Origin: a virus
Lineage: Duplodnaviria; Heunggongvirae; Uroviricota; Caudoviricetes
DNA length: 64,000 nt
Virus record (IMG/VR): IMGVR_UViG_3300005253_000530
Direction: 5' to 3' (one strand)
The first letter of the stretch is position 1, and each line of letters begins with the position of its first letter. Of this stretch, positions 2,008 to 33,004 are shown one piece after another. The translations under genes were made by a program, and so were the position numbers. The notes under the pieces are model-generated. The model was given only the letters and a program-made list of their open reading frames with translations, was not told the origin of the DNA and did not search any database.

Positions 2008-2085
2008 TGGTCGGGGCGGTAGGATTCGAACCTACGGCCCTCGCGCTCCAGACGCGATGCTCTGCGCAGACTGAGCTACACCCCG
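2008..2085 (-). tRNA. tRNA-Pro-like (UGG) tandem paralog, genomically encoded CCA, atypical D- and anticodon loops
   Basis: Same anticodon stem and T-arm as the neighbouring Pro gene; loop UCUGGAG (C33); D-loop lacks GG; 3' end CGCCCCG-A-CCA encoded. Confidence 0.5.
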
Positions 2086-2856
2086 TTATATTTAACAACC
2101 ATCACCTAAATCTTTAGGATCTATACCATCCTCCCAATGATTATGATGTATGAATTCTATTTCATTTATTCTATGCCCGCCCACTCTATTGTAATCAAAT
2201 CCACCATCAACAAAGGTCTCAGCTGGGCAGCCACAACTTTGAAAATCATGACGGTACATTGAGTGTAATACTTTTTTACACGCTGGACATTTTATTTTTC
2301 CGCCTATAATAATTCTCCTTCCATTTTTTACTCATATTTTTACCACGATGCTCCAGCAGGATATTGTAAATAACATCCACATAGCGGGCATTCTACTTCA
2401 GTTATACTTTGCTCAATATTAAACTCAGTCTTACATTTTTCACAGCATATTTTTGTGCCTCCTGGAATATCATCAACAAAAAGCATATCTCTAACAAAAA
2501 GTATGTTTGGTTTGGTGTTTACTTTATTTGGTAGTCGAGATATTTTAACTTCATCGTGAGCAGATGGGGTTGCTTTTGACATAGCTTCATCAAATGTTGC
2601 AGCTTCCACATACCATGTTCTAACAACTTTAAGTTTAGCCATCCTAATTCTCCTTTTGTCTAGGTTTTTAATAGCTGTATTCTTTGGCAGTTGGCATTTT
2701 CCAAAAGATCAATGATCTCTTCTAGTGCTCTTACTTCTACTGTAGTTACGTCTGTGCCTAATATAGGCATAGCCACGCTTTCCATTTTTATCTCGTTCCT
2801 AATTTTTTCTGACATACTTTTTAATAATTCGATTCTATGCACTGTAATTCCTCCTT

Positions 2857-2929
2857 TGCTCCGACCGGGAATTGAACCCAGCTTTCTGCCTTGAGAGGGC
2901 AGTGTCCTAAACCGATAGACGACCAGAGC
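2857..2929 (-). tRNA. tRNA-Glu (anticodon CUC)
   Basis: Strong resemblance to bacterial tRNA-Glu (TCGTCTA...GGACAC, anticodon stem CTGCC/GGCAG loop CUCUCAA, T-arm CTGGG-TTCAATT-CCCGG). Confidence 0.7.
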
Positions 2930-3340
2930 TTACGATTTTTCAAGACTGCCCTGCAATCTTTGTATTACATGGACAAATCTTCTGTGCATACCATTAAGGG
3001 CTGATTTATACTCAGCGTCAGAATTGTAGTGATTATCTGCATTTAAGCATTTATCTAAGTGTAAGTCTGTGCAAGCTGAATCAAACAATTCTTTGAATCG
3101 TTTTTCTTCTATTTGTATAACTTTCATTTTAATTCTCCTTATAGACCATGCTCTTTTTACATATTGGGCACTCACTCAGTATTTTTTCACAGTTATCGCA
3201 GTCGCCGTGTTCGTCGCTATATGTGTACCCCGCTCCTTGATCCTCATCACAGTAACAATCTGAGACTTCCATCTTATGGTCATTGCCACAATTAACGCAT
3301 GTAATATCAAGAAGTCCTACTGACATGATAATCCTCCTTT

Positions 3341-3366
3341 TGCTCCGACCGATAGACGACCAGAGC
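3341..3366 (-). pseudogene. tRNA-Glu remnant (5' and 3' ends of the 2857..2929 gene joined, about 48 nt internal deletion)
   Basis: tgctccgacc|gatagacgaccagagc matches both ends of the tRNA-Glu(CUC) gene; the upstream RBS/gene-start context (aatcctcctttgctccgacc) is duplicated with it. Confidence 0.6.
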
Positions 3367-3658
3367 TTAATAAATCTTTTACTTTTACCAAATATTTGTT
3401 TCTTCTACATAAAGAACACTTCTAACGGGGATAAGTCTGTCACATGGGTCATCTCCTCCTGTTCCCCATTTTCCTATGACAAAAAAGCCTTGTTTACCCC
3501 ATCCCACTATTTCAACAGGGTCTATATTCCAATTGCGAGACCACTTGCTGCGTCCCCGCGCTTTATGTTTATCGTCAAAATATTGATATCCACAGTTATG
3601 CCTGTTTACCTCTACTTTTTCCCCGTTTATTAGTGTTAGCTTCATAATAATTCTCCTT

Positions 3659-3730
3659 TGCTTCCAGAGGGTATCGATCCCACTTCTGCGGGGTGAAGGC
3701 CCGCTATCCTAGCCAGTAGACGATGGAAGC
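3659..3730 (-). tRNA. tRNA-Glu (anticodon UUC)
   Basis: Acceptor GCTTCCA/TGGAAGC, Glu-type D-arm TCGTCTACTGGCTAGGA, anticodon stem GCGGG/CCCGC loop CCUUCAC, T-arm GTGGG-ATCGATA-CCCTC. Confidence 0.65.
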
Positions 3731-4131
3731 ATCTACTATATAAATGCTATACATATTAATGCGGCTATTATACTAATACCTATAAGTATAACAAGAACGT
3801 CATCAAATCCAAGTTTTCTTGGTTTATCCAATTCGTGAAAAAATCTATAATCTTCTGGATATATCATAATTTCTCCAATAAAAAAGGGATTCAGATTGTC
3901 TCTGAACCCCTTGGTGTTTTCTATGTTTCGTTTGTTTTATCCGGGATGTGGATCCGGATCCACCAAGGGATTTCCAATATGATTATCACGTTCTCTGAGC
4001 AAACTGGTGGCGGGCGTCCCTGTATATATAAATGAGACGGATAAACAACTCGGTTTTTGTTGCCTTAGTATGCTCGAAAACATTGTATCCTCCTTGGTTT
4101 AGTTGGTATTAATTTAGTATTGGTATATTAT

Positions 4132-4275: not shown

Positions 4276-4578
4276 GTATCCTCCTTGGTATTTTAGTGCT
4301 CTTTGTAGCACTCATATATATTATAGAACACAATTTCAATTTTGCTAGATTGTTTTTTGACTTTTTTCAAGAAAGGAGTTTGCCATCCAGCCGGTGTCTG
4401 TGCCAGCTGGACGACTTTGAAAGGAGTAAATCATGAAATAGAACAAATACCAAAACAAAACCAAGGAGTTACACCCCTTGTCACCAAATATTTTTATTTG
4501 GCCCACCCACTAAAATGTTATCCCGTTTTTTGTATGTTTTCTGCCCACCCACAAGTTTAATGTTATAGAGTTATAATG

Positions 4579-5262: not shown

Positions 5263-6075
5263 TTAACCTTCCAGACCAGGAAATATTCTATTCTGATCAG
5301 TGTATTTTTGTATTCTCTTTATGGATCTGTTTGTATAGTCCTCACTAAGTTCGAAGCCTATCCATTGTCTTTCTAAAATTTCTGCTGCCAAACAAGTGGT
5401 TCCCATTCCTGAAAAGATATCTAATACTGTGTCTCCTTTGTAAGATAGCTGTTGTATAAGCCTCTTAGGTAGTTCTATCGGGAACATAGCAGGATGTTCA
5501 TACAGTTCATTCATACGAGATTCAGGAGCAAATTCCCATAAAGCCAGGCTATACTCAATAAACTCTTCCTTACTCACGGTTATATTTTCTTTCCGACCTG
5601 ATTTTTTTTGGCTTCCGTTACAAAATATCAGTATGTATTCAAAAGGGGTTGGAAATGAGGGATTGGATGGTGACTTCCAGCTACCCCACGCTGTTCTATT
5701 TCCTATCTGATTTTTGTTCCATATAATTACGGTCTTTATCAAATACCCCAACTCTTTTGTCATAAACTGAATGATATCTGTATGTGTAGGCACCGCCCCA
5801 TTTTTTCCGTCACCTATGTTTATGCATACTCTGCCGCCCTCTACCATTTTTGGCTTTAGAATGGCAAATATATTACATAGCCATCGTATATATTCTTGAT
5901 GATCTAAGTTATCGTTGTAAAGATCATATGGATTTTTATTGTACTTATTTTTTCCCAGATCTACATTATAAGGGGGACTACAAATAGTTATATCTATAGA
6001 TTCATCTGGTAGTTTGGGGATTAACTCTAAACAATCTCCACAGTGTATTTTATTTATCCAGTTTTGTATCGACAT
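5263..6075 (-). CDS. DNA methyltransferase, beta class (N4-cytosine or N6-adenine)
   Basis: Motif IV SPPY near N-terminus and motif I FSGMGTT near C-terminus (IV...I order). Confidence 0.8.
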   Translation of the reverse strand: MSIQNWINKIHCGDCLELIPKLPDESIDITICSPPYNVDLGKNKYNKNPYDLYNDNLDHQEYIRWLCNIFAILKPKMVEGGRVCINIGDGKNGAVPTHTDIIQFMTKELGYLIKTVIIWNKNQIGNRTAWGSWKSPSNPSFPTPFEYILIFCNGSQKKSGRKENITVSKEEFIEYSLALWEFAPESRMNELYEHPAMFPIELPKRLIQQLSYKGDTVLDIFSGMGTTCLAAEILERQWIGFELSEDYTNRSIKRIQKYTDQNRIFPGLEG

Positions 6076-6950
6076 TATATATATCTACCTCTTTTATCAC
6101 GATTTCTTTGTGCAGTGCCCCAATAGTATTCTAGATATTTGTTATCTATTAGATAATTAAATTTTTTATTCTTTCTTTCCATAAATATAGATGCATCTCT
6201 ATAAATATAATGGTAGAATGAAAGTATATTTTTTTTGCGTGTTAGAATAACATACCACAATTTATTTTTTGCTTTCTTATTCATATAGGGGGTGATTTGG
6301 CAGCCCTCCATACCTTCTCTTACTAGTATTTCTTTTATAAAAGACATAACACTTTTTGTACCAGCTATATTTAATATCGGAGCTGGATATTTAGATCTTT
6401 TTTGATACACAATAGATATACTACCGTCGCCATCAAAATATCCTCTTATAAAATGCTTTTGTAAGTTTACTGGTAATATTGTATCTTCTGGAAATGATAG
6501 TATCAAGGACTTTCTTGGCATACATCCTTTTGATATCAACGCTTTTACTAGTTTTTTGCTACCAATTTCTATTTGATATACATTAGTATTTTTAACAGGC
6601 TTAAATGGGTAATTTGAATTAAGACATTCATTAAATTTTATAAATATATCTTTGTCTCTTTTATGTTGTTTAAATGATAATGAATGGCTTGTGTCTTTTC
6701 TGATTCTTACACACCCATCAGCATATAAAAATCCTAGCCAATATGCTTTATGTTCTGTATTTATAGTTTCAAAATAAGTTTCATCTATTTCATATATTCT
6801 GGATGTATTCATCTCTATTTGATTTGAATACAATATTCTTCTGATAGGTGTTATAGATGTCTCTAGTATTTTGGCTACTTTGCGTAATGATCTACATTCA
6901 TTATATAATTTTATGACCTGCTTTTTATTCAATTCTATTATGGATGGCAT
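6075..6950 (-). CDS. LAGLIDADG homing endonuclease (two-motif, free-standing)
   Basis: Two LAGLIDADG motifs WLGFLYADGCV and FIRGYFDGDGSI; stop overlaps MTase start (TAATG). Confidence 0.8.
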   Translation of the reverse strand: MPSIIELNKKQVIKLYNECRSLRKVAKILETSITPIRRILYSNQIEMNTSRIYEIDETYFETINTEHKAYWLGFLYADGCVRIRKDTSHSLSFKQHKRDKDIFIKFNECLNSNYPFKPVKNTNVYQIEIGSKKLVKALISKGCMPRKSLILSFPEDTILPVNLQKHFIRGYFDGDGSISIVYQKRSKYPAPILNIAGTKSVMSFIKEILVREGMEGCQITPYMNKKAKNKLWYVILTRKKNILSFYHYIYRDASIFMERKNKKFNYLIDNKYLEYYWGTAQRNRDKRGRYI

Positions 6951-9422: not shown

Positions 9423-10790
9423 CTATTTCAGTGCTGTGGATAAATATTTAGACACTTCCTCTATAAGAACGTCTCTTTGGTTCATCGATTGATCCTCTAT
9501 TACTATAGATAATAAATAGTTTAGTATATGACCTATAGTAGGACCAGGCTTCAAATTGAATTCTTCTATGAGTACGGTGCCATCTATATTCAGATCTTTA
9601 ACATGTAGCACTCTAGATTGATTATAGACTTGTTTTATACGTTTCTCAAAAGATATTTGTCTCGGTGATATTTCACTGAGATTTAGACCATTTGCTGCTC
9701 TGTCAGCTTTTCTTAGTAAAAATACTGGCATACGGCTTAGCTTTTTTATTTCTTTGTTCGAGATATGTATTTTAGCTATAAATCTGCGAACTGCTGCATC
9801 TGACCACCTATTAGGCTCATAGTTGTACATATGATTATATATTAGGTCAGATACTACTAATGCCATTTCTTTGTCGAATTTTAACCTTCTTAGTATGCGC
9901 CTCGCCATTTTTGCGCCGGTGACTTCATGATTATAGAACGTTACTTTATATTTGCCTCCTCTTACAACCTCTTCTCTTACCTGTGGCTTGCCGACATCAT
10001 GTAATAAAGCTGCTAATCTCAATACCAAGTCTCTTTCGGCATTACCACAAGCTGTTAAGCAATGAGTTAATACATCATATTTATGATATTTCCTGTTTTG
10101 TGTTACCCCGTCACATATACTTAGTTCAGGTATGATCATATGCATAAGACCTGAGTCGTGCATTGTTCTCAGATATTTTGAAGGCTTTTGGCTCATAACT
10201 ATTTTTATGAACTCAAATTTTATTCTATTTATAGATACTTTCTTTACTAATGCATGGTTTGATTTAATCGCATAAAATAAATTGCTATCTATTCTGTAAT
10301 TGAGGTGTGCTGCCAGCGACAGAGTTTCCATCATAATAGCTGGATTTTGTTTCGTAACTAGATCTGCCTTTCCAATGACTTTAATTTTTCTGTTCCGAAT
10401 ATCGTTTCGACCACGATAAATGTCTATAAGACCTTTTGGGCCTTTTGATGCTATAGGTAGATACATCGCATTTACTGTAAATGCCTTTTCTTTTGCATCC
10501 TCCTTTAATGTGAAATATGGACTATATTTACCTCTTTTCTTTGGATTCCGTATAATGAAATTTATGTCATCTGTGGAAAACGAGATACATCCCTTTAACT
10601 TCTCTATTTTTAGATTTTTACGATGCCGGCGTAAATATTTTGATACTGTTTGTAATGATATTTGTCTTACTACTATCTCTATTTTGGTGGACTTTTTTCG
10701 CCTCACAAGATTACAAACGTATCTGCCTGCATAATATATTTCAGCCGGAGTCTCCTTGTTTAGTTTCTTCAGTATTGATATTATTTTCAT
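9423..10790 (-). CDS. CCA-adding-enzyme/poly(A)-polymerase family protein with HD domain; head-domain catalytic motifs degenerate
   Basis: Class-II NTase body motifs FTVNAMYL, DIYRGRNDIRNRKIKVIG, ETLSLAAHLNYRID and HD motif LLHDVGKP; but GGxxRD...DxD replaced by AGRYVCN...KIEIV. Confidence 0.65.
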   Translation of the reverse strand: MKIISILKKLNKETPAEIYYAGRYVCNLVRRKKSTKIEIVVRQISLQTVSKYLRRHRKNLKIEKLKGCISFSTDDINFIIRNPKKRGKYSPYFTLKEDAKEKAFTVNAMYLPIASKGPKGLIDIYRGRNDIRNRKIKVIGKADLVTKQNPAIMMETLSLAAHLNYRIDSNLFYAIKSNHALVKKVSINRIKFEFIKIVMSQKPSKYLRTMHDSGLMHMIIPELSICDGVTQNRKYHKYDVLTHCLTACGNAERDLVLRLAALLHDVGKPQVREEVVRGGKYKVTFYNHEVTGAKMARRILRRLKFDKEMALVVSDLIYNHMYNYEPNRWSDAAVRRFIAKIHISNKEIKKLSRMPVFLLRKADRAANGLNLSEISPRQISFEKRIKQVYNQSRVLHVKDLNIDGTVLIEEFNLKPGPTIGHILNYLLSIVIEDQSMNQRDVLIEEVSKYLSTALK

Positions 10791-11604
10791 GTTTTATACG
10801 CGCTCCGTATTTTTTCACAAGTAAATCTTTCAGATTTTGTATTCTTATATGTAAAGTTGATGCTTCCACACCAAATGGGCCGCTTAGCTCTCTTTCAGTT
10901 TCTCCACCTACATAATGTCTGTACAATAGGTCGTAATCTTCCTCTGATAGACTTTCTTTTATTTCTTTCACAAACACAATGTTGGAGAAGGCTGAATCAT
11001 CTGTTGTGGCTGTTGCGGCTATGGTGTCCAGATTGGTATAAATTATTTCAGGAAAGGATACTGGAGAGAGCTCCGCACGCTCTAATAATTGTATAACTGA
11101 AGTATGAGATCTGTCAGCTAAATTTTGAATACTTTGCTGTATTCTGATAACATCCTCCATAAGAGATTCTTTGTTTTTTGGAGGATTGTCCTTATAATAT
11201 TCGGAAGCTGTCCATATATCTACAAAAGTTAACCGTCTAAGACCATCCATTTTTTCTAGAACTTTTTGTAGTGATTCTGTTAGATTTGCTGCATTCTTTA
11301 CATATTGAGGTATCTTTATATTGCTCCCTTGCGTGGTTATGTACTCACGAAGAGCGTCCTTGATTTTATAAATAGCATAAATTCTAAACTTCTCACTTCT
11401 TTCCCGCTCGAAATCTCTATAGGCTCTCGCCAAGCCGATTAGACCCTCCTGGCGCAGGTCTTCCTTGTCTACACCGGTAATAGCTGAAAGTTTATTTGAT
11501 AGAAAGCTGATGTCTTTCTCGTATTTTTTTAATAACTGTTCGGCCTGCTCCTTAGTATCTGCGAGAAAGTGCTTACTAAAAACTTCACCGTCACGTATTG
11601 GCAT
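10741..11604 (-). CDS. sigma-70 family RNA polymerase sigma factor
   Basis: Region 2 DLRQEGLIGLARAYRDFERERSEKFRIYAIYKIKDALREYI and region-4-like C-terminus. Confidence 0.8.
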   Translation of the reverse strand: MPIRDGEVFSKHFLADTKEQAEQLLKKYEKDISFLSNKLSAITGVDKEDLRQEGLIGLARAYRDFERERSEKFRIYAIYKIKDALREYITTQGSNIKIPQYVKNAANLTESLQKVLEKMDGLRRLTFVDIWTASEYYKDNPPKNKESLMEDVIRIQQSIQNLADRSHTSVIQLLERAELSPVSFPEIIYTNLDTIAATATTDDSAFSNIVFVKEIKESLSEEDYDLLYRHYVGGETERELSGPFGVEASTLHIRIQNLKDLLVKKYGARIKHENNINTEETKQGDSG

Positions 11605-12081
11605 GTTAACTCTCCTTTAGTTAAGTTGTCCTTTTATATTTGCTATAGTATTTAATATCTATAAATCATTTTTATGTTAGCCTGCCTCCTTTCTGCAACA
11701 TATCATATATAATACCGGAATAAATCAATTCTTCTCGTTCTGTCAATGGATATTTGTTAAATTTCTGTGCATTTAGGGGTGCTTCTAGTATTTGTAGGTT
11801 ATCTTGATGGTGTAAGCCCCCTTTACTAAGAGGAAGAATATGATCTATAACATATTTTTCTTTTTCAAGCTGTGTTCCTTTTTTTGTTCCGAATTATTAA
11901 TATAATATTTACTATTATACTCTGGATTATTTTGGTGCCATTGCTTCACATATTTACTTCTACAGTGCCTACACTACGAATTCCTGCGGCCCTTACTTTT
12001 ATTCCGCCAACTAAATTCCTCTATATCCTTTTCCTTTTCACACTTAGTACATATTTTTCTCGTCATGGTATATTATTAATA

Positions 12082-13125
12082 TTACATCTCCCTATCAAAA
12101 TTTCTTGGAATATCTACATAATCTCTTTTTATGGTTGATTTTATATGTCCATTATCGAGTAAATATTTTCTACCTTGGTCTGTTATTTTCCTTCCTTTTG
12201 GTGCTCGAAGAATTAGCCCTCGTTGTATAAGATATGGCTCCATAGTTTCAGATATAACTTTTGGTGACTCATTCAGTCGTACAGCTATGTTATCCAGCCC
12301 TATAGGATCTTCAACTTCGTACATCATTTTTAGCATACTAATATCTGTACTATTTAGACCGGTTTTATCAATTCCAAGCTCGCTGAATGTTACTATAGCT
12401 ACATCAGAGGTGACAGCCTCCCGATCAATAGCTGCAGCCATATCTCTACACCTTTCAAGTAAGCTGACCACAACCCTTGGTACTCCTCTGCCTCTCTTTG
12501 CGATTTCCAGTGCAGCTTTCTCGCTTATTTTCATTTTTAACCGCTCTGCATGTACAATAGCTATTTGTATAGACTCTTCTTGTGAATATGGCGTGAATAC
12601 AAATCGCATTTTAAATCTATCTCTAAACGGCTTACTTAACTTGCCGTCATTTGTAGTAGCACCTATTAGTGTAAATGCAGGGCTCCATCGTGTTCTTTCT
12701 GTAGCATCATTAAAAATGTCCAGTGGATCAGATTTCATTTCTCGACTAGTTACTGGTATATACCATTCTTCCATTAATACGCCCATATGTTCTTGGCCAG
12801 CCAGTGACAGGTTGTGTATTTCATCTATAAATATTATATTATGCCGGATACACTTGTCTTTCAGTTTTTTGCCGTATATATCATACCCAGTTCGATCGAA
12901 CTCTTCCACTATCTGTAATAGATCGGATCTACCTTTAATAGAATCACAGGCCACACTCGCAAATTTACCACTAGTTATATCGGCGATATATTTGGATGTA
13001 CTAGTTTTTCCACACCCAGCAGCTCCGCTCATGAGCATATGTGGTATTGATCTGTTTTCTTTGATAGCGGATTTTATAGCAATGTCTATCTGTACAAGAA
13101 TACCTTTATTACCAATCAATTTCAC
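12082..13125 (-). CDS. ruvB: RuvB-like AAA+ ATPase (Holliday-junction branch-migration helicase family)
   Basis: Walker A LMSGAAGCGKTS, Walker B IIFIDEIHNL, C-terminal winged helix ISETMEPYLIQRGLILRAPKGRKIT matching RuvB EPYLIQ..RTPRGR; GTG start with GAGGT RBS. Confidence 0.75.
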   Translation of the reverse strand: MKLIGNKGILVQIDIAIKSAIKENRSIPHMLMSGAAGCGKTSTSKYIADITSGKFASVACDSIKGRSDLLQIVEEFDRTGYDIYGKKLKDKCIRHNIIFIDEIHNLSLAGQEHMGVLMEEWYIPVTSREMKSDPLDIFNDATERTRWSPAFTLIGATTNDGKLSKPFRDRFKMRFVFTPYSQEESIQIAIVHAERLKMKISEKAALEIAKRGRGVPRVVVSLLERCRDMAAAIDREAVTSDVAIVTFSELGIDKTGLNSTDISMLKMMYEVEDPIGLDNIAVRLNESPKVISETMEPYLIQRGLILRAPKGRKITDQGRKYLLDNGHIKSTIKRDYVDIPRNFDREM

Positions 13126-13168
13126 GTAAGTACCTCACTTTTTTAGAATTCTACATATATTATAGAAT

Positions 13169-13197
13169 AATATAGACATTTTGCTAGCTTGTGTCAA
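13169..13197 (-). promoter_or_regulatory. sigma-70-like promoter upstream of ruvB-like gene (TTGACA-N17-TATATT on minus strand)
   Basis: -35 TTGACA at 13197..13192, 17-nt spacer, -10 TATATT at 13174..13169, about 40 nt upstream of start codon. Confidence 0.4.
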
Positions 13198-13209: not shown

Positions 13210-14004
13210 TTATAATCCTGCGTATCCGCTATATCCATATACTTCTTCCATATGAGCTTGGTCCGTAGTTTCAGATTTGTCCCCTTTTTTTTCTCCTTCT
13301 TTTGGTTCTTTATCTGCTGGTATTTCAGCAAGTTTTGGAGCTTTGTAAGTACCCTCTTTAATAGCCTCTATCTTTGTTTTCATTCTCTCAATAGCACTAG
13401 ATATTGGATATTTTGTTGTTCTTCTTATCACAAAAGTTTCTATTTCTTTTTTCTTGTAGGTAGTGATAGGCCTATTATGATACGGAGCACCAGAATAAGC
13501 ATGGTTTACAGGGTTATAGGTTGCAGCTTTGCTAGTAGTTTTGTTAGCAGGTTTGTACGTAGGTTTTATATCGTCCTCTACTAGTTTCTTTGTCGCCTCT
13601 GGTACATTCGTATAACCATCTGTATCAATAAGTCCATTAGGGCGTAGCATATCGTACTCTTTTAGGGCTTCCTGGACACACGTCAGTCTTTCAATGTTCA
13701 CTTCTTCTTTATAGGCAGAATATTTAGTGTAAGAGCCATTTATATTGATTTCCATAAACTTGATCTCGTAATGGCTGAGATTTAGCATTTGAACTTCTTC
13801 ACCCTTCATCAGCCATACGAAAAGATCATTTTTATTGACCAATTGAACATTGATATCAACTAATCCACGCAAACCGAGGAAATACCCGGCAATTACTGGG
13901 CCTTTCTTGTCGGCTTTCGCCGTAAGCCCAACCACCACATATTTGATACCCTTAAGTTTCTCTGTTGTGAATGCTTTTTCTGTGACCATTTTTTCTCCTC
14001 GCAA
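13210..14004 (-). CDS. hypothetical protein
   Basis: 264-aa ORF in operon between ruvB-like and GNAT genes. Confidence 0.5.
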   Translation of the reverse strand: MRGEKMVTEKAFTTEKLKGIKYVVVGLTAKADKKGPVIAGYFLGLRGLVDINVQLVNKNDLFVWLMKGEEVQMLNLSHYEIKFMEININGSYTKYSAYKEEVNIERLTCVQEALKEYDMLRPNGLIDTDGYTNVPEATKKLVEDDIKPTYKPANKTTSKAATYNPVNHAYSGAPYHNRPITTYKKKEIETFVIRRTTKYPISSAIERMKTKIEAIKEGTYKAPKLAEIPADKEPKEGEKKGDKSETTDQAHMEEVYGYSGYAGL

Positions 14005-14404
14005 ATATTATAATATGTCTACCACGACCCCATCTTTTCCCTATAGGTCTCATACCTACCCGTAAATTATTCCTTATATTCGTGTGATTATCACTACCAA
14101 CAGCACCATATACAAATTCAGTAGTAGCCGCTTGAATGCCTTTTTCAAGTAGTTTTTTACCTAGTCCTCTTCTTCTATAATTAGGATGAACGCATAGGTG
14201 CTTGAGCTCAGTCGTAAGGCCATATTGCTCAAGCCCTATCACGCCCGTTATTATTTCTCCATCTAATTCTATTAGATATTTTACTGGACTAAGAAGTATT
14301 GAACTTTCGTTCAGTCGGGCCCATAGCTGATCTCCAGCATTGATCATATCTGCTATCTGTACAGCTATGTTCCTGGCACCGACTGTTAGTACAAATTTAC
14401 TCAT
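13952..14404 (-). CDS. GNAT family N-acetyltransferase
   Basis: Acetyl-CoA-binding motif LCVHPNYRRRGLGKKLLEKG. Confidence 0.75.
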   Translation of the reverse strand: MSKFVLTVGARNIAVQIADMINAGDQLWARLNESSILLSPVKYLIELDGEIITGVIGLEQYGLTTELKHLCVHPNYRRRGLGKKLLEKGIQAATTEFVYGAVGSDNHTNIRNNLRVGMRPIGKRWGRGRHIIIFARRKNGHRKSIHNRET

Positions 14405-14408
14405 TTAC

Positions 14409-15494
14409 TCACATGTCTCCCCTCATTAAGGCGGCTATTACGGCTTGTGCTTCTTCATCATTACGAACATTACGCATAACTCTGGTCATACCGCCATTAG
14501 GAGCCTCATCTGCTACTGCTGCACCAACCGCTCGGCCCCGTCTTGCTGCAGGCGCCGGTCTTGCTGCAGGACGTTCTTCTCTAGCAGGAGCCTCAATTTC
14601 ATTGATCTTGGCCCGGAATGCTTCCACATATTTCTGTAAAGCTGTTCCTTGTAGACCGGGGCCGCTGTTGATCTCGATAAGATAAGGGTTATTGTCCAAT
14701 CCAATTGCGCAATCGACCGCACCAAAGTCCAAACCGGTAACTTCTACGGACTTTATGGCCATAGCCTTCAATGCGTCTGAAACATTATTTAACGTGACGC
14801 CGGAAAACTTCCATCCCCTTTTGTTGCTTCGGACTATACGATCTGGCAGTTCAGCTTCCTTCACTAACAGGCTAAGAACATAATTCAAAGTGGATTCATC
14901 CAGATTTTGATTATTTTTCTGTGCATAATCTAGCACTTTTTCTTTACGCTGTGCGATCCAGCCGGCATCGGTCGGGTTTTCAACCTTCTTTACTGCATAT
15001 ATAACCTGACCAAAAGCCACATGGAGCCGATATTCGTCTTTGATGTCAATATAGTTCTGAAAATACTGGGCACCGTCATGAATGGCTCTTTCAACATGTT
15101 GCTTATTTAAACATGTCCAGAATCCTTTACCGCCCTGGTGAAAATTTGTGCGACCAACAAGCGGCAATTTGATGTCACTTCTCCGCCGGTCCATTGCAGC
15201 TATGACCTCATCAGCTCCGCAAAAGGCTGAGATAGCCGGTTTTGTCGCTCGATTTCCATACAAAGATGTCAATGTACTCATTTTGTTCCGGTTGTTTCGA
15301 ATTTTATCCGGGTGATTAAGTATGGTTGCGTTATCCAAACGTACAGCCGCATCTGTCTTGGCTCCCCATCCGATTATGATATCACCATTTTGGATACTCC
15401 GGGGCTTTGACTTTGTACCAGTTAATCCCAATGCGTCCGCTAAAGCCTGGCCGGTTACATCAGTTGCTCCACTAAACCAAATATATTTTGACAT
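14409..15494 (-). CDS. ATP-grasp ligase (RimK/alpha-L-glutamate-ligase-like) with GC-rich Ala/Arg/Pro-rich C-terminal tail
   Basis: ATP-grasp motifs EYRLHVAFGQV, GLDFGAVDCAIGLDNNPYLIEINSGPGLQG; last about 60 aa PAREERPAARPAPAARRGRAVGAAVADEAPNGG encoded by locally GC-rich DNA. Confidence 0.75.
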   Translation of the reverse strand: MSKYIWFSGATDVTGQALADALGLTGTKSKPRSIQNGDIIIGWGAKTDAAVRLDNATILNHPDKIRNNRNKMSTLTSLYGNRATKPAISAFCGADEVIAAMDRRRSDIKLPLVGRTNFHQGGKGFWTCLNKQHVERAIHDGAQYFQNYIDIKDEYRLHVAFGQVIYAVKKVENPTDAGWIAQRKEKVLDYAQKNNQNLDESTLNYVLSLLVKEAELPDRIVRSNKRGWKFSGVTLNNVSDALKAMAIKSVEVTGLDFGAVDCAIGLDNNPYLIEINSGPGLQGTALQKYVEAFRAKINEIEAPAREERPAARPAPAARRGRAVGAAVADEAPNGGMTRVMRNVRNDEEAQAVIAALMRGDM

Positions 15495-15764
15495 GTTATT
15501 TCTCCTTATTTTAATAGGTTAAAATCCCTTTCTACTCCACTCCTCCTATTTAGCTACCACCGTGTCTATACTGACAGGCGCTGTGACAACCGCTGTTATC
15601 TCGTCTTTTGCTGGGTTTGCAGTCATGGTGACAAAAGACTGACTATTAGGAAAGCTATAGCGTGCCTCAATATACTCTGCTATAGCCTGCAAGATATTAT
15701 CGTTCGTCAAAGTAAATATAGATTTCTCTTTATTGCCTAATAGTTCCATGTTATTCCCCCCTTG

Positions 15765-17108
15765 TTATATTATGAAATTACTATTACCAACCCATGTGTG
15801 CTTCAATCCTTTCTCCCTTTCATTCAGCACATTCTGAGGTAATCTAACTACCTCTATAAATTTATCTATATAATCAGCATACTCTCTGTATGTCTGTAAT
15901 GACCTGTATCTTGACTTTAGCTCATCGAAATAACTTTTTCTGAATTCTATTTCCCATTTATGTAATATATTTTGCATAGCTCCAGAGCTAGAAGTAGTAT
16001 TAAATGCCTTTGTAATTTCTATATTCTTCCATTGATCAAAAGACATATCGAAGAAAGTCAAATCAGTGTGGGCATACCAATCATCGGTCTCTTGGTGTTC
16101 TTCGGTCATAATCAAAGAATGCTTAAAATTACCATCTTCTAAGGCTCTAAAATATGCGTGAGCTATAGCTTTTACTGTGCCTATGACTATTCTGGCCAGT
16201 TCTGGATGAGTTAACCACTCACCACTTAAAGTACGATACTCTAATCTATTATGATCAGTCTTGTGATCTCCAAAGCGACCAAATGACTTTCTACGCTTCA
16301 TTCCATTCTTTTTACCATCAAGCTTCATCATTGGTACAGCTACATAATCGTCTAATATTCTTTGTAGACACGCGTACACTGCGTGTGAGTAATTACTACC
16401 AAATGAACTTATCTTTTGAGCTAAATTTGCTGGTGTCCCTAAATGTATGTGGCCTCCAACAGGCCAGTCCCTTCGACTGTTGTCAGGATCCGCACCCGAT
16501 TCATGCCCAGAATGGTTACACCCACCGACCCATTCATACAGAGCTATTAACTTTGTATTAGGGTGATTTGTTAGTATGCCATGTATATTACTTACAAAAT
16601 CTTCTACTAGTATCGCAGGCTTTGGCCTTAGTTCAGCCAATGGCCCGTCTGATCCGAGCTCGTCATTATGACTCAGATTATTTACTTTTGATGCATACAT
16701 TATGTTACCATCCTTATTAAATAACATAAACTCAGGGTCACCGCCTACTACTGTGTCCTCAACTGTATCTGCTAACCATATATTCTCTTTACTCCCGCTA
16801 CCGTTCTTACAGACATAGCTAAATATAGTAGAAGTTACAAAACCAACCCTTTCAAAATCGTCAGCACTCATAGATTCTTTAGCTTTTTTTAGATCTGAAG
16901 AGTAAGCTTGGAATATTTCGAGACTTTTACTTCTGTTTATTCGTCCATTTGTATCAGTATTAGGCCATACCTCTACAACTTTTTCATCAGCTAGCCCAAG
17001 ATTTTCTCTAGCTTTTACTCCTAGTCTGATCAGACCGTTTTCATTCCTATCATTCTTTCTGTTGGAATCCATTCGGTCTGATATGACTAATATTAATGGA
17101 GCTTTCAT
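15765..17108 (-). CDS. GCS2/glutamine-synthetase-like carboxylate-amine ligase (amidoligase), paralog B
   Basis: GGDPEFMLFNKDGN ... GSDGPLAELRPKP ... GGHIHLG; shared with 22726..23928 and 41042..42268. Confidence 0.6.
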   Translation of the reverse strand: MKAPLILVISDRMDSNRKNDRNENGLIRLGVKARENLGLADEKVVEVWPNTDTNGRINRSKSLEIFQAYSSDLKKAKESMSADDFERVGFVTSTIFSYVCKNGSGSKENIWLADTVEDTVVGGDPEFMLFNKDGNIMYASKVNNLSHNDELGSDGPLAELRPKPAILVEDFVSNIHGILTNHPNTKLIALYEWVGGCNHSGHESGADPDNSRRDWPVGGHIHLGTPANLAQKISSFGSNYSHAVYACLQRILDDYVAVPMMKLDGKKNGMKRRKSFGRFGDHKTDHNRLEYRTLSGEWLTHPELARIVIGTVKAIAHAYFRALEDGNFKHSLIMTEEHQETDDWYAHTDLTFFDMSFDQWKNIEITKAFNTTSSSGAMQNILHKWEIEFRKSYFDELKSRYRSLQTYREYADYIDKFIEVVRLPQNVLNEREKGLKHTWVGNSNFII

Positions 17109-17120
17109 ACGTCATCCCTC

Positions 17121-18944: not shown

Positions 18945-18946
18945 AT

Positions 18947-24617: not shown

Positions 24618-26018
24618 CTATCCGTCTATTATCTTCATGCCTAGTAGTCGATAAGTCATCGCTCTGTGCATGAATTGATTTTTTAATATACCAATATTTT
24701 CATCTACATAATCATATATTATCGCGTCTTTTTTTCCCTCGCACGCTCTTTGTATCCTACCAACTGCCTGTTCTACTCTTGTCTTCTCCCTAAATGGTAA
24801 GGCTATGAATCCTCTATTTAGTTTTGGTACATCAAATCCCTCACCTAATAGTTCAAATGTAGTAATTAGAACTGTGGCTTCACCTCTTTCTATTTTTTCA
24901 ACTTGTTCGTTATTGTGTTTACGACTGTAGTCGCCGGTAGCTATTACTGCTTTATCCCAATAAGGGAGTAAAGTTTCTAGTATCATTTCGCAATATTGTT
25001 TTCTTGTATTTATTACTATGCAGTAATTTCCTTTAGTAGCTTCCCTATGTATATCTTGTACTATCATTGAGAGCCGAAGTTCGTTTGTTAATAACAACTC
25101 TGTAATGATATAAGGGAAATCATTTCCTTCCCATTTTTCTGATGGTACTATTCTTTTTACTACTATAGGAGTTATTATACTTCCTAATTTCTTTACTTCT
25201 TCTCGTGCTACTTTAGCATTAGGCAGTCCTATAGTCGCAAACATAACATTTTCTAACTTGTCACGCCTATATGGTGTGGCAGTGAGGCCATATAGGTAGT
25301 AACTTGAGAAATAACTAATTACTTCTAGGAATGTTGAGGCTGGTACATGGTGAGCTTCGTCTATTATTACAATACCAAATTTCTTACCAATTGCTAAAAG
25401 TTCGTCTTTTCTTCGTACCAGTGTAGGTATCATTCCTATAGTGATCCTATCTCCCAATTTCATCTTCCCGCCGCCGATAAATCCTATCTCATCCCTTGTT
25501 ATATCTGAAAAAGCAGGTGGGTGATCATCTGTACCTATAATTCTTTCGATAACTTGGTTCGATAGCCTATTCGTATGAGTAAGCCATAGCATTGATTGTC
25601 GAACTGAGGCAAACAGATCGAGGCCCATAATTGTTTTCCCAGACCCTGCTGGTGCTACTAGCATACCATTTGGATGACTTAACAAATTGAATTTAGCTCC
25701 ACGCTGGTATGGTCTTAGCTTTATATTGGATGAAATAGATATTGGCGGGGTAAGTATCCTATTATCCTTTATAGAAATATTTAGCCCTTGCCCTATAATA
25801 GAGTCTTCTATTATTTGTAAAAATCCTCTTGGTAGAACTATTCCATTTGGTAACCTCCTGTATAATTTTATATATTGTCTTATACTATTAGTATATCTAC
25901 CATATTTCATAGCTTCTTCGAACTTTGGATTATTAAATGTCAGCTGTTCTATAAACCAATCGGTTACATCCTTTGGTGCGTCTAAAAGTTTAAGTGAACT
26001 GTCTATTATCAACTTCAT
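24618..26018 (-). CDS. SF2 DEAH-box helicase (UvsW/XPB/type-III-res-like)
   Basis: LRPYQ, Walker A APAGSGKT, DEAH box IIDEAHH, motif III GLTATP, motif VI QAVGRIQR. Confidence 0.8.
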   Translation of the reverse strand: MKLIIDSSLKLLDAPKDVTDWFIEQLTFNNPKFEEAMKYGRYTNSIRQYIKLYRRLPNGIVLPRGFLQIIEDSIIGQGLNISIKDNRILTPPISISSNIKLRPYQRGAKFNLLSHPNGMLVAPAGSGKTIMGLDLFASVRQSMLWLTHTNRLSNQVIERIIGTDDHPPAFSDITRDEIGFIGGGKMKLGDRITIGMIPTLVRRKDELLAIGKKFGIVIIDEAHHVPASTFLEVISYFSSYYLYGLTATPYRRDKLENVMFATIGLPNAKVAREEVKKLGSIITPIVVKRIVPSEKWEGNDFPYIITELLLTNELRLSMIVQDIHREATKGNYCIVINTRKQYCEMILETLLPYWDKAVIATGDYSRKHNNEQVEKIERGEATVLITTFELLGEGFDVPKLNRGFIALPFREKTRVEQAVGRIQRACEGKKDAIIYDYVDENIGILKNQFMHRAMTYRLLGMKIIDG

Positions 26019-28775: not shown

Positions 28776-29147
28776 CCTACTTTAAGAGGAAAAGTACACC
28801 TACTAATATTATAGAATAAAGTAGGAATTTTATTAACTAATAGGTCTATTATCTGTCCATATCCCACACATCTTTTTTGTCTTTCGGATTAACAGGTACT
28901 TTGACTAATACCGGGTAATCTGAGGAAGGATCCAACATTCGCTCAACCAGTTCTTCTGGACTAAATCTTTCTGTGGGATGAGAATAAAGTTCTATTTTAC
29001 CATCCTCACTTTCTTCTATATCACGGTGAAAGTAGCATTTTACCGCCTCTAGTGGATCTGTCCACGCACCATCTATACTTGTTTCAAACACTATCAAATA
29101 TATGTGGTCCATATTTGCTTTCCTTTCTATATGAAAATTTGTAAAAT

Positions 29148-29510
29148 CTAACCCATTGGCGGCCTACCAGTCGGTGCCGTAGATGGGCCACCGCCTGTAC
29201 CCTTGGGTTTGAATCCGAACCCTACACTTAGAACTGTGAACACATGATGATTCTGGCCTTCTGCCGTCCAAGCTTCATACTGGCATTCAATCCACAGCTC
29301 TTGGCCTTCTACCACATACTGTTCGATCAAATCAGCTTTCTTATCAGATGCAAACATGGGCACATCCACCGGTTTATCCACCCATTGTCCGTTTGCGTCG
29401 GGTCGTTTTTTATTAACAACGAGGTGAAAGAACGCTTGCTTTTTACCATCAGGCGACGAAATTTGCAATCCCTTAACCTTTCCGATAAACATTGTTTTAC
29501 TATAATCCAT
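29148..29510 (-). CDS. ssb: single-stranded DNA-binding protein (OB-fold SSB)
   Basis: MFIGKVKGLQISSPDGKKQAFFHLVVN...WIECQYEAW pattern typical of bacterial/phage SSB; Gly-rich tail. Confidence 0.7.
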   Translation of the reverse strand: MDYSKTMFIGKVKGLQISSPDGKKQAFFHLVVNKKRPDANGQWVDKPVDVPMFASDKKADLIEQYVVEGQELWIECQYEAWTAEGQNHHVFTVLSVGFGFKPKGTGGGPSTAPTGRPPMG

Positions 29511-29512: not shown

Positions 29513-32500
29513 TTAGTCTCCTTTAATTAGAATTTTGTCTATGTATGCTGCCAACTCTTCGTATGCGGCTCGCATGTTTTCAGTTGTCAGCACATTACGA
29601 ACTTTTATTTTCTTAGCCTTGATCCTATCTAATACATCCTCTACATCTTCTCTTTTCGACTTCAAGATTCTGAACAGCATGAAGCTGGGAAGATCCAACG
29701 GTGCAGATCGTAAATGGTCCAAGAGATTAAACGGGCCTAACAACGCCCTACTTGCGAAATATATCTTATTTTTCCTCCTTACAATGAAATTGATTATCTT
29801 GCTTCCTCTTCCTTCTTTTGCGGCTTGGTGAAAACTGACCAAATCCCATATCCTTAGACTGGCAGCCTCTAGAAGTATCAAATCGCATAGCAATTGGCTT
29901 GCCTCCCTGTCGAAACCCAGCCCAACCATCTTTTCTGTATCTGCGACACATATAGCATCTGTTGCCTCTTCCTGTAGAGATTTGATACCATGTTTTTGCC
30001 TAAAAACAGTATTACCAAGAAAATCCAGTAGGACTTCTAGATGTACATGACTTTCTGCTTCCGTATAAGGGACACAGCGCTCAACTATCCGCATTAGATT
30101 ATAAGCCAATGCAATTACCGGTCCAGTATGACTTTTTACACCAGTAGCTTTCCTTACAAGCTCCGCATGCTCCTCGTTAGTAGGTTTAGGAAATTTACAT
30201 ATCTGAAAATCGTCCAAAGTCATTTCCCTATGCTTAGGAACTTTCTTTGCATTCATACTCTCAATGATCCTATTACATAGATCGTTTGGTTCTCTCATCT
30301 CTTTGCGTAGTAATTCAATAGACGCAGGGTTATGAAAGGACGCTATAAATAGGCTGTCACCATCAAAATCAAGATTTTCAGAAGTAAGACTGTTTCCACT
30401 AACCCTTATGACATATTTACACTGTGGATCATTTGTGACTCTTACATATTGAGGACGTATGGACATGAATCCAAGACAAGGAAATCTTTCCACTAATACC
30501 ACATCCCCCGTCTTCACCTTTAGTGCTCGTGCCATATCACTATGAATTTCTATTGTATTTTTGGGCAAATTATCCACAACACAATGCTTCAGTTCAGTAG
30601 GATAGTCGTCCTCGTTGTCGGCTAGGGCAGCAGTTGCTCTACTGGAATAAGGATATCTTACTGCCATACCATATGTGCTTAGCTCCCCGTTCTTTCCACC
30701 CATCATCCTGGATACATTCTGAAAGTATCTTGTAACAGCTCTCATCAGTTCATTCTGATCATTTACATCTCCTGTTTCTATAAATTTATGAGAAGCTATT
30801 ACTATATGATTGACATATAGCCCAACGGTATTCAGTCCCCATTTACCAGACGGATGACGCCAGCACCTTCGAGATAGAGCATTGGGTATAAATATTGTAT
30901 TATAAATATACTCTATCTTCTGGCCCGGATCTAATATTTCTTGTGGTAGACCCATTGTATATGATTCTACATCTTCTTTGTCCACGATAGCCTGAAAGTA
31001 ACTTGGTATACGCAGTATAAATCCTTCTGGCATATATTCGTCATCAACTATAGTACCTTTGATATTAGCCAAATCGTGAAATATACCCTGGGTTGTATCC
31101 ACGCATGCCACATCTTTGGCATCAATTACTGGAATGCCAGCATCTATTTCACCCTTAGCAGACCTGAGAATGTCTATTCCGTCCTGCAACATGGATACTC
31201 CCTGCGAATAGGACATTATTTCTTCCAGCAGTGGGTTACCTTGGCCGAATCTGGTAGTCAGAGCCTTCATCTCTACATGACTGAACTTTAGCCCAGATGT
31301 CCTCAGTTCTCTGTTATTGGTTAGCTCTGTCCTATCTTCTTCCCACAACTGATCTTCCGGGTCCTTAGTTACTCCCCAAAACATCTTCCCCACTATTGCC
31401 TGAGATTCTCCAAAATATGTATCGATCATCGAAGTTCCATCTTTTGGGAATCCTTTGGATTCTAACGCTGCTTCAAGTTTAGATTTTTCCACCAAAATAT
31501 CATCTTTGACCACGATAGGAACATTTCCCTCATTTAAGTTATTTGCGAGAGCCTCAAGAATTTGACCAAAGTTCTTACGCTTATTGATAGATGTGCCAGA
31601 CATCATTACATCTATTTGCACTTCTTCACCGGTTCTTGGATCCACTTGATGCCCCAGGTCCATAAAGCGTATAATGCCTTTATTACCATGTAAATTAGAG
31701 AATTTACTACCATCCCTTAGAAATCTCTTCCCCTTCACAGTTACCACTACGAGCTTTATTTGTTCGCCATTCAGATCAGTTACAGTTCTGTTTACCTTTG
31801 TTATCTTTGCCTCATCACAACGCATATCCATCATAACTGGCTGACCATCTTTTGAAAATCCAAGCACATCCCCAGTTCTTACCTCTTTACCAGCCTTTGC
31901 AAGTATGTGATCACCATAGATGGCAAATCTCTTTGTTACTGTGTGTGATAACCCTCTGTGCCGGTTGTCTGCAAGAATTTGATCCTCGAAGTTTAGAACT
32001 GTATCGATAATAGCAGTTACCATGTTCCAGCCTTTTCTATCGATGCCTTTCTCAACCAGCTTTTGTATGGACTCAGACCTGATATTTGGTAACTCGTCGC
32101 CTTTCATCCCAAGAGTAGAATATAGATTTCTCTGGGGATTATGGTATTGTCCAAACGGAGTTATATCTCGTAGATCTGTGGTCATTAGATAGTTTTTATC
32201 AGACAACACACCGTCAGATAATCCTATAGCTGTCCACCCAAATTTACCGTAATATCTTTTGTTCTTGTCGACCTGGTACTCCAGTTTCTCGTTGGGATCA
32301 GATATATACTCGAAAACTGGGTCTATAATAATAAGCCGATGATTCATCGCCCAGCTATTCATATCTGTCTCATGTAGTGGCATAATGTTTATAACACTGT
32401 TTAACAGCCTCTGAGTCTCACTCACCATATACACCACTCGATCCCTGTCAAAGGACTTTACGATCTTGTGTACCATCGGACTACCACTCATTTGCGACGG

Positions 32501-33004
32501 TATAATTACATTTACATCTTCACAAAGTAGGCTTTCAACGATTTGATGAAAATTCATCTTTTTCTGCTCCCGCTCCAACCAGAAATCACACAATACTCTA
32601 ACGACATCGTTGTTCTTCAGAAATTCTATACCGTTCTTGCCTACCGTTGGAAGCGGTATTTGTAGACATTTTTCCACATCCTCTCGACTAAACTTAATCC
32701 ACAGAACATAATCAATTACTTCGGTAGTCATGATTATGCCGGCTTTAGTTATACTATTTATACGGTTAAATTCGGCTGCGATGTTGACCAGTAATAGGTC
32801 TGTACGTCTATCGAGAGTTTCCTGATCACAAATCTCCCTCTTTGCATGAGAGAGGAAAGCTTCATGCCGAGCAATCTCCTCCTTTAGCTGTATAACTCTC
32901 TCAAGCCTTTTTATTTCATTGTTTAACTTCTGAACACGGATATCCTTCTCGAGCTGGGATATCTCTGTATTCAGCGCCTTCATCATTTCTGTGTTATTAC
33001 TCAT
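29513..33004 (-). CDS. single-polypeptide two-barrel (multisubunit-type) DNA-dependent RNA polymerase, beta-like N-half + beta'-like C-half
   Basis: beta DPBB motifs RDGSKFSNLHGNKGII...NFGQILEA (cf. RpoB GRHGNKGV...NIGQILE); beta' motifs RFPCLGFMSIRPQYVRV...ENLDFDGDSLFIASFHNPASIELL (cf. RpoC NADFDGDQMAVHVPL); DFDGD encoded at about 30355..30378. Confidence 0.8.
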   Translation of the reverse strand: MSNNTEMMKALNTEISQLEKDIRVQKLNNEIKRLERVIQLKEEIARHEAFLSHAKREICDQETLDRRTDLLLVNIAAEFNRINSITKAGIIMTTEVIDYVLWIKFSREDVEKCLQIPLPTVGKNGIEFLKNNDVVRVLCDFWLEREQKKMNFHQIVESLLCEDVNVIIPSQMSGSPMVHKIVKSFDRDRVVYMVSETQRLLNSVINIMPLHETDMNSWAMNHRLIIIDPVFEYISDPNEKLEYQVDKNKRYYGKFGWTAIGLSDGVLSDKNYLMTTDLRDITPFGQYHNPQRNLYSTLGMKGDELPNIRSESIQKLVEKGIDRKGWNMVTAIIDTVLNFEDQILADNRHRGLSHTVTKRFAIYGDHILAKAGKEVRTGDVLGFSKDGQPVMMDMRCDEAKITKVNRTVTDLNGEQIKLVVVTVKGKRFLRDGSKFSNLHGNKGIIRFMDLGHQVDPRTGEEVQIDVMMSGTSINKRKNFGQILEALANNLNEGNVPIVVKDDILVEKSKLEAALESKGFPKDGTSMIDTYFGESQAIVGKMFWGVTKDPEDQLWEEDRTELTNNRELRTSGLKFSHVEMKALTTRFGQGNPLLEEIMSYSQGVSMLQDGIDILRSAKGEIDAGIPVIDAKDVACVDTTQGIFHDLANIKGTIVDDEYMPEGFILRIPSYFQAIVDKEDVESYTMGLPQEILDPGQKIEYIYNTIFIPNALSRRCWRHPSGKWGLNTVGLYVNHIVIASHKFIETGDVNDQNELMRAVTRYFQNVSRMMGGKNGELSTYGMAVRYPYSSRATAALADNEDDYPTELKHCVVDNLPKNTIEIHSDMARALKVKTGDVVLVERFPCLGFMSIRPQYVRVTNDPQCKYVIRVSGNSLTSENLDFDGDSLFIASFHNPASIELLRKEMREPNDLCNRIIESMNAKKVPKHREMTLDDFQICKFPKPTNEEHAELVRKATGVKSHTGPVIALAYNLMRIVERCVPYTEAESHVHLEVLLDFLGNTVFRQKHGIKSLQEEATDAICVADTEKMVGLGFDREASQLLCDLILLEAASLRIWDLVSFHQAAKEGRGSKIINFIVRRKNKIYFASRALLGPFNLLDHLRSAPLDLPSFMLFRILKSKREDVEDVLDRIKAKKIKVRNVLTTENMRAAYEELAAYIDKILIKGD

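Follow-up and report, generated by a model that had tools for sequence, protein, structure and literature searches.

A phage that carries both a sigma factor and its own RNA polymerase (RNAP) raises the question of which core enzyme the sigma factor serves. Here we studied this question in a 64,000-nucleotide stretch of Caudoviricetes DNA (IMG/VR record IMGVR_UViG_3300005253_000530; hereafter the window), which encodes a sigma-70-family protein of 287 amino acids (10741..11604, minus strand) and a single-chain RNAP of 1163 amino acids (29513..33004, minus strand). A preliminary description of the window had reported the sigma factor and its coexistence with a phage-encoded RNAP, both of which we found, and had called that RNAP a sigma-independent type, which the present analysis does not bear out. 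We found that the phage sigma truly belongs to the sigma-70 family, with a layout like that of group 3, that its gene is a core gene, conserved in synteny, of an uncultivated lineage of jumbo phages also encoding the single-chain RNAP, and that this RNAP is a fused beta-beta' enzyme of the cellular type. The reading we favour, at about even confidence, is that the sigma factor redirects the host core RNAP, as the preliminary description had proposed.

The phage protein is a sigma-70-family factor with a group-3-like layout

The sigma gene begins with an ATG, and a strong Shine-Dalgarno sequence, AAAGGAGAG (11610..11618, minus strand, read from the sequence), lies 5 nucleotides 5' of it. Two curated hidden Markov models (HMMs) matched the protein above their cut-offs, as the preliminary description had expected of a sigma factor: Pfam Sigma70_r2 (PF04542; 30.5 bits, gathering score 24, E=3.2e-7, residues 42-92) and NCBIfam TIGR02937 (48.8 bits, cut-off 42.9, E=5.9e-13, residues 20-264), which is a sigma-70 superfamily-level model despite its name. 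PHROG 351, 'RNA polymerase sigma factor', also matched the protein (E=1e-15). The region-2 segment singled out earlier, DLRQEGLIGLARAYRDFERERSEKFRIYAIY, corresponds to residues 49-79 and is borne out by the Sigma70_r2 match.

We then compared a profile of 46 family members with solved sigma factors and obtained E-values down to 2e-13. The profile aligned to Staphylococcus aureus SigB in two blocks, region 2 and then regions 3-4 (residues 151-263), and nearly over its full length to WhiG (residues 22-256) and RpoH (residues 20-262), while primary sigmas were matched over region 2.2 with E~1e-13. The AlphaFold2 model (predicted local distance difference test, pLDDT, 73) was all-helical and contained three blocks at about residues 18-92, 100-178 and 205-273; its best Foldseek matches were SigB, FliA, WhiG, RpoH and primary sigmas. 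The first block is region 2 (11329..11553, minus strand), with the core-binding 2.2 segment DLRQEGLIGLARA at residues 49-61, which is near the bacterial consensus. The second is a sigma3-like helical block (11071..11307, minus strand) with model helices at residues 100-120, 127-139, 146-165 and 170-178, and it aligns to SigB. The third is the region 4 helix-turn-helix (HTH; 10786..10992, minus strand), assigned from TIGR02937 up to residue 264, the profile alignment to SigB region 4 and the model helices. The region-4-like C-terminus proposed earlier thus holds at the level of the family profile (SigB, WhiG and RpoH), but not for Pfam Sigma70_r4, which gave no match to the single window sequence at E<=10. 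Several homologues (P0012, P0013, P0018 and others) carry precomputed Sigma70_r4 (PF04545) or r4_2 (PF08281) matches.

The conservation pattern reflects purifying selection: at least 87 homologues were found, and residues of regions 2.2 and 2.3/2.4 are invariant. Across the 46 aligned homologues the invariant residues are D49, I56-G-L-A-R-A61, R69, F73, K80 and D83, and the sigma3 block shows conserved NLA.RS and R176/E178/P181. When aligned by eye, W434 and Q437 of sigma-70 are replaced by the invariant K80 and D83. The N-terminus bears a clade-specific, near-invariant motif, which lies in a low-confidence part of the model.

In length, layout, full-length profile alignments and best structural matches the phage sigma is like the bacterial group-3 sigmas. 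Judged by sequence comparison, its architecture resembles the SigB/F/G, FliA/WhiG and RpoH groups, but it falls far short of their equivalog or subfamily cut-offs (SigBFG, 40.1 bits against 234; FliA_WhiG, 30.8 against 190; rpoH, 28.7 against 323), and it differs from them also in the K80/D83 replacements and in its own N-terminal motif. Extracytoplasmic function (ECF; group-4) sigmas consist of sigma2 and sigma4 only, lack sigma3 and have about 170-220 amino acids. An ECF assignment was ruled out by the length of 287 amino acids and by the helical block of about 80 residues that separates sigma2 from sigma4 and can be aligned with region 3 of SigB, WhiG and RpoH. Neither the ECF nor the SigK/SigF-like typing suggested in the preliminary description therefore applies, the protein not being ECF and all curated subfamily scores lying below cut-off. 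A match to Phage_antitermQ (E=0.027, below cut-off) was dismissed as generic HTH similarity inside region 4. Six longer homologues (P0013, P0014, P0023, P0027, P0032 and P0066; 380-390 amino acids) carry an insert of about 100 residues with a second sigma4-like HTH that matches Pfam r4, r4_2 and ECF models; by its sequence this insert would be a duplicated region 4.

The co-encoded RNAP is a single-chain two-barrel enzyme

Pfam analysis of the RNAP identified Rpb2_6 (residues 397-533, E=4.5e-11) followed by Rpb1_2 (residues 796-885, E=3.2e-6) in one polypeptide. The active-site motifs HGNKG and DFDGD are intact, with the beta-type N441-K-G443 encoded at 31676..31684 and the beta'-type catalytic D879-F-D-G-D883 at 30356..30370 (both minus strand). 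Among 45 homologues, N441-K-G443 and D879-x-D881-G-D883 are invariant, and the mean column identity is 51%. The AlphaFold2 model was confident (pLDDT 85.4; predicted template modelling score 0.79). Foldseek matched the N-terminal half to second-largest RNAP subunits from bacteria, archaea and eukaryotes, with mycobacterial beta as the top match (E~1e-14), and all structural matches of the enzyme were two-barrel RNAP subunits. A T7-like single-subunit RNAP was rejected on these structural matches and because Pfam RNA_pol (PF00940) gave no match. The window RNAP is thus a fused beta-beta' enzyme. Polymerases of its class normally depend on sigma-type factors, and the bacterial ones require sigma. 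In carrying both double-psi beta-barrels in one polypeptide of about 1000 amino acids it is like SPbeta YonO and the yeast killer-plasmid RNAP.

The RNAP gene lies 17.9 kb upstream of the sigma gene on the same strand. Directly downstream of it is an SSB-family OB-fold gene (29148..29510, minus strand; profile against solved SSBs, E=8.9e-8), and further downstream a SNF2/DEAD-type helicase gene (24618..26018, minus strand), as in all relatives: the order RNAP, SSB-family protein of about 120 amino acids, SNF2/DEAD helicase was found at 13/13 IMG/VR loci. By analogy with an N4-like SSB and a RapA-like helicase, these two proteins are possible cofactors of the RNAP. In phage N4, SSB and gp2 are polymerase cofactors, and the SSB-family gene adjoining the polymerase gene in the window recalls them. 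N4 differs in that its polymerases are T7-like single-subunit enzymes and in that it is not known to encode a sigma factor.

Sigma and RNAP are conserved together in an uncultivated jumbo-phage lineage

No relative of the sigma factor or the RNAP was identified among 50,697 deposited phage genomes by tblastn (E<=1e-5 for sigma), nor did 11 kb of the window match these genomes by megablast. The lineage is widespread in metagenomes, where we found at least 87 sigma relatives and at least 382 RNAP clusters on contigs up to 327 kb; eight contig sizes were common to the sigma and RNAP lists (21403, 27500, 34675, 38448, 51856, 66414, 91997 and 189212). Scanning IMG/VR with the single RNAP sequence gave nothing, whereas an alignment-based scan recovered 13 viral contigs with RNAPs of 35-45% identity, up to 298 kb long.

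In the window, the sigma gene is the second gene of a block that starts with a RuvB-like AAA+ gene (12082..13125, minus strand; Pfam RuvB_N, AAA_lid_4 and RuvB_C) and ends with a CCA-adding/polyA-polymerase-like gene with an HD domain (9423..10790, minus strand; hereafter CCA-like). The same order was found in L001 and L099. Using a RuvB-like alignment, we recovered 8 of the 13 IMG/VR RNAP contigs, and in 7/8 a sigma gene lay directly downstream of the RuvB-like gene (E=1e-13 to 1e-66 with the family profile). In the exception (L022/L014; IMGVR_UViG_3300035698_010479), both the sigma and the CCA-like genes were absent from the slot, and no sigma was found in the 34 kb covered. The first list of 87 proteins had suggested that many RNAP contigs lack sigma, which proved to be an artefact of search sensitivity: with the RuvB-like gene as a handle, sigma was found in the same slot, for instance on contigs 96878 and 76223. 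Each RNAP contig fetched in this way for which no sigma had been listed carried a Sigma70_r2 gene of 273-286 amino acids between the RuvB-like and CCA-like genes.

Altogether, the sigma gene occupies a conserved syntenic slot in 12 loci, beside the RuvB-like and CCA-like genes and 15-18 kb from the RNAP gene, with homologues down to about 29% identity. Counting only contigs with both genes demonstrably on one record, sigma and RNAP are found together on at least 17 contigs in addition to the window, so that the coexistence noted in the preliminary description extends across the lineage. Family HMMs identified no second sigma factor and no second RNAP within the window. Sigma-like open reading frames (ORFs) also lie within a few kb of a RuvB-like gene of only about 30% identity on six further IMG/VR jumbo-phage contigs (L037, L044, L045, L049, L069 and L084). 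Since none of these is among the RNAP-scan contigs, the RuvB-like/sigma linkage may predate the association with the RNAP. Host assignment through metagenome-assembled genomes was discarded, because relatives appeared there only on short contigs in genomes of unrelated phyla, which points to mis-binning.

Three reviews describe a different division, in which RNAP-encoding jumbo phages are without sigma homologues, while sigma homologues typify RNAP-less phages that rely on the host enzyme (Sokolova et al. 2020, PMC7598289; Iyer et al. 2021, PMC7824862; a 2026 jumbo-phage review, PMC13282480). The pairing of sigma and a two-barrel RNAP, both conserved core genes here, contradicts this split. 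The 'moraphages' have been described with sigma present and RNAP absent. Weinheimer & Aylward 2020 defined the mReC clade of metagenomic Caudovirales by COG0085 (beta) and COG0086 (beta') matches and a T4-type major capsid protein and TerL; sigma is never mentioned there, and whether any mReC RNAP is fused is not stated. The window contains no capsid or terminase gene. Full-text literature searches, which left most subscription journals outside their coverage, returned no paper in which a phage has a fused beta-beta' RNAP together with a sigma-70 homologue.

Host-type promoter sequences precede the sigma operon

All genes of the window lie on the minus strand and are tightly packed, with 8% intergenic sequence in which AAGGAGG is the dominant motif. 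Of all host-type promoter matches in the window, the best (11/12) lies before the RuvB-like gene, at the head of the sigma operon (promoter region 13157..13197, minus strand), as TTGACA (13192-13197)-N17-TATATT (13169-13174). It overlaps, with an offset of about 10 bp, a second element composed of CTAGCAAAAT (13178-13187), N10 and TTCTATAATAT (13157-13167). This region of about 50 nucleotides is conserved nearly base for base in L016, L017, L018 and L001, although the L001 sigma is only 45% identical, and TTGACA-N16/17-TATATT precedes the sigma operon in the window, L016 and L018. Since canonical sigma-70-type promoters precede the sigma operon, the phage would use the host holoenzyme at some stage, and the host holoenzyme can probably transcribe the sigma gene, as far as promoter sequences tell.

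A second copy of the overlapping element, CTAGCAAAAT-N10-TTCTATAATA, lies at 4318..4348 (minus strand) upstream of the tRNA array, with orthologous copies before tRNA-Glu(ttc) in L001 and L016. A partial third copy (28806..28836, minus strand), TTAATA-N17-TATAAT within TTCTATAATAT, lies upstream of an insert-containing tRNA gene. The -10 part of the element is a perfect TATAAT, and its upstream box contains TAGCAA at a spacing of 16 nucleotides, which agrees with TTGACA at 3/6 positions. We checked whether this box covaries with the sigma factor and found that at distant orthologous sites it was either absent, the genes abutting, or replaced by a plain promoter, such as TTGACT-N17-TATTAT or TATTCT before the sigma operon of L024 and L025. 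The CTAGCAAAAT box is therefore clade-specific. Apart from the CTAGCAAAAT/TTCTATAAT element, the k-mers enriched in intergenic sequence of the window and six genomes were only the Shine-Dalgarno sequence and AT-rich words. The comparison of promoter motifs proposed in the preliminary description thus delivered a canonical promoter and the CTAGCAAAAT element, but no class that could be assigned to either polymerase.

Which core enzyme the sigma factor may serve

In bacterial RNAP, the beta' clamp coiled-coil is the main dock of sigma region 2.2, and the beta flap-tip helix is the dock of sigma4. We examined the model of the phage RNAP for both surfaces. An antiparallel helical hairpin (helices 726-744 and 747-768; residues 726-768, 30701..30829, minus strand) lies just N-terminal of GKNGELSTYGMAVRYP. 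It follows a lid-like SGKWG and precedes GKNGELSTYGMAVRYPYSSRA (motif GK.GELS.YGM.VRYP.SSRA), which we read, from its sequence, as the counterpart of beta' GKRVDYSGRSVI. By motif order and predicted secondary structure, not by superposition, this hairpin is clamp-helix-like and a candidate docking site of sigma2. At the flap position the model shows a long beta-hairpin (strands 398-411 and 414-428) whose tip is a plain turn without a helix. Mean column identity was 0.45 at the tip of the clamp-like hairpin (residues 741-760) and 0.41 at the flap-like tip (residues 401-420), compared with about 0.65 overall; the flap-like tip is the least conserved segment of the RNAP and the clamp-hairpin tip is among the least conserved.

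Based on these observations, we infer which core is bound, which promoters are read and when. Host core appears the better candidate because region 2.2 of the sigma is bacterial-like and does not vary among homologues, in contrast to the putative docking elements of the RNAP, which are its least conserved parts, because the RNAP model has no flap-tip helix, because the sigma gene is not genetically linked to the RNAP gene, whose fixed neighbours are SSB and helicase, and because host-type promoters precede the sigma operon. The phage proteins characterised so far whose sequence is recognisably similar to sigma-70 (SPO1 gp28 and gp34, phiEco32 gp36, T4 gp55) all act, as far as is known, on host core. 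In the mechanism we propose, host RNAP with its housekeeping sigma would read TTGACA-N17-TATATT before the RuvB-like, sigma and CCA-like genes; the accumulated phage sigma would dock through its invariant bacterial-type region 2.2 on the clamp helices of the host beta' subunit and would then steer the host core to phage promoters. The phage RNAP, probably aided by its SSB and helicase neighbours, would transcribe another class of genes, and the outcome would be a two-polymerase programme. If so, the lineage would have a new mixed host/phage two-barrel transcription programme, and it would be like N4 in using phage-encoded and host polymerases in sequence. Reviews likewise assign the sigma homologues of jumbo phages to host RNAP (PMC7598289, PMC7824862, PMC13282480). 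The window sigma is like SPO1 gp28 and gp33/34, phiEco32 gp36 and T4 gp55 in being a phage-encoded sigma-70-family protein, and it combines a host-type promoter with a retained region 2.2. SPO1, phiEco32 and T4 differ from the window in that they are not known to encode an RNAP of their own, and T4 gp55 is sigma2-only while the window sigma is a full sigma2-3-4 protein.

Several points weigh against redirection of the host core. The asymmetry in conservation between docking surfaces, read from alignments, is indirect evidence. No promoter class was attributable to the phage sigma in the k-mer analysis of the window and six genomes, and host-type promoter-like sites are sparse in the window and not enriched overall: the gene strand has 26 and the other strand 21, and only 5 of them are intergenic. 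In addition, the RNAP is of a class that uses sigma and has retained a predicted clamp-like hairpin, no further initiation factor was recognisable, sigma-derived RNAP subunits have a precedent in AR9 gp226 and phiKZ gp68, and sigma and RNAP co-occur across deep divergence.

These last four points also speak for the alternative that the sigma factor is a dedicated promoter-specificity subunit of the phage RNAP, an arrangement that we regard as a real but lesser possibility and to which the near-invariant clade-specific N-terminal motif of the sigma also lends support. In such a two-protein holoenzyme (1163 + 287 amino acids), sigma2 would dock on the hairpin at residues 726-768 and read promoters such as CTAGCAAAAT-N10-TTCTATAATA, and the part of host RNAP would be limited to starting expression. 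However, the candidate docking surfaces are poorly conserved compared with the invariant region 2.2, the flap-tip helix for sigma4 is lacking, and the sigma gene is unlinked to the RNAP gene and its conserved SSB and helicase neighbours. Moreover, the L014/L022 lineage has the RNAP and no sigma in the slot or in the 34 kb covered, the CTAGCAAAAT box is confined to the clade of the window while the sigma is far more widespread, and co-occurrence of two core genes does not demonstrate interaction.

The relevant known systems here are AR9 and phiKZ, whose genomes likewise combine a two-barrel RNAP with a sigma-related protein; gp226 and gp68, the fifth subunits of their non-virion RNAPs, would match the window sigma in function if its partner is the phage RNAP. 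Neither gp226 nor gp68 shows detectable sequence similarity to sigma, and both were recognised structurally only (PMC9209446, PMC8287921), whereas the window sigma passes curated sigma-70 HMM cut-offs, and the AR9 and phiKZ RNAPs are split into at least 4 polypeptides while the window RNAP is a single chain. A sigma that serves the phage enzyme would make it a compact sigma-dependent RNAP of about 165 kDa. We consider it possible, though less than probable, that the two proteins form a minimal two-polypeptide holoenzyme, which would be the smallest known sigma-using two-barrel machine and an evolutionary intermediate linking the bacterial holoenzyme to the enzymes of AR9 and phiKZ, in which the sigma-like subunits would then have diverged past sequence recognition. 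Such an enzyme would bear on the evolution of sigma-core recognition, on the origin of gp226 and gp68 and on small orthogonal transcription systems.

It is improbable, in our judgement, that the sigma factor acts as a competitor or decoy on host core, displacing host sigmas and shutting off the host with little promoter specificity, or that it is used with both cores at different times. The intact bacterial-like region 2.2 would suit such a role, a phage with its own polymerase could afford to disable the host enzyme, and no clear sigma-specific promoter class was detected; against this, the protein has kept regions 2.3/2.4, sigma3 and the sigma4 HTH in conserved form, which is unexpected for a pure decoy, and the phage shut-off factors known to us are small non-sigma proteins. 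Finally, a decaying, non-functional remnant of a captured bacterial sigma gene, as the adjoining decayed HNH endonuclease and the missing Pfam r4 match might suggest, is effectively excluded by the conservation pattern, given a full-length ORF with a strong Shine-Dalgarno sequence in a slot conserved in 12 loci, functional residues invariant in homologues down to about 29% identity, and the lack of any close bacterial sigma, the best curated family scoring far under equivalog cut-offs.

Neighbouring genes and other features of the window

The sequence between the RuvB-like and sigma genes (11605..12081, minus strand) is a decayed HNH homing-endonuclease remnant, with a Cys-rich N-terminus and IDHILPLSKGGLHHQDNLQIL, interrupted by stops and frameshifts. 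In L001, L016, L017 and L018 the RuvB-like gene adjoins the sigma gene directly and the remnant is missing; the near-identical contig L099 has it. On the strand opposite the RuvB-like gene, a 332-amino-acid ORF (12131-13129, plus strand) was judged to be a shadow ORF and not a gene. At its other end the sigma gene overlaps the CCA-like gene by 50 nucleotides (10741-10790); the overlap is 50 and 41 nucleotides in L016 and L018. We considered the conserved C-terminal tail of the sigma (..E(S/N)N....E....G.SG) as a docking peptide, but it is more likely a by-product of this overlap.

The CCA-like gene is part of a tRNA maintenance module that comprises two CCA-adding/polyA-polymerase+HD paralogues, an RlaP nucleotidyltransferase and seven tRNA genes (54822-56192, 9423-10790, 52313-53200 and 397-3731, all minus strand). 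One of the two paralogues has a weak head domain, and the divergent CCA-like paralogue is co-operonic with the sigma gene. A further tRNA gene (28667-28750, minus strand) carries an 18-nucleotide insert at the anticodon-loop position; it matched Rfam tRNA at 33.7 bits with relaxed filters only and was missed by ARAGORN and default Rfam. A flanking inverted repeat of about 28 nucleotides is apparent by eye, and the TTCTATAATAT promoter-like site lies upstream.

Between the helicase gene and the sigma operon lies a large conserved cluster (13952-23928, with 41042-42268; minus strand) encoding phiEco32-type COOH-NH2 ligases, class-II glutamine amidotransferases, an ATP-grasp-like protein and a GNAT acetyltransferase. 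Clusters of this type are usually read as serving peptide or metabolite modification, and the ligase genes are a further likeness to phiEco32. Strong intrinsic-terminator-like hairpins with T-runs were found at 57013-57044 and 3884-3912 (minus strand), and the counts of such structures were 5 on the gene strand and 0 on the opposite strand. A 291-amino-acid ORF with LAGLIDADG-like motifs, recognised by eye, adjoins an N6/N4 DNA methylase gene (6075-6950 and 5263-6075, minus strand), and in L017 (12121-13050) a faint LAGLIDADG insert lies inside the methylase. Homing endonucleases seem to be common in the lineage of the window.

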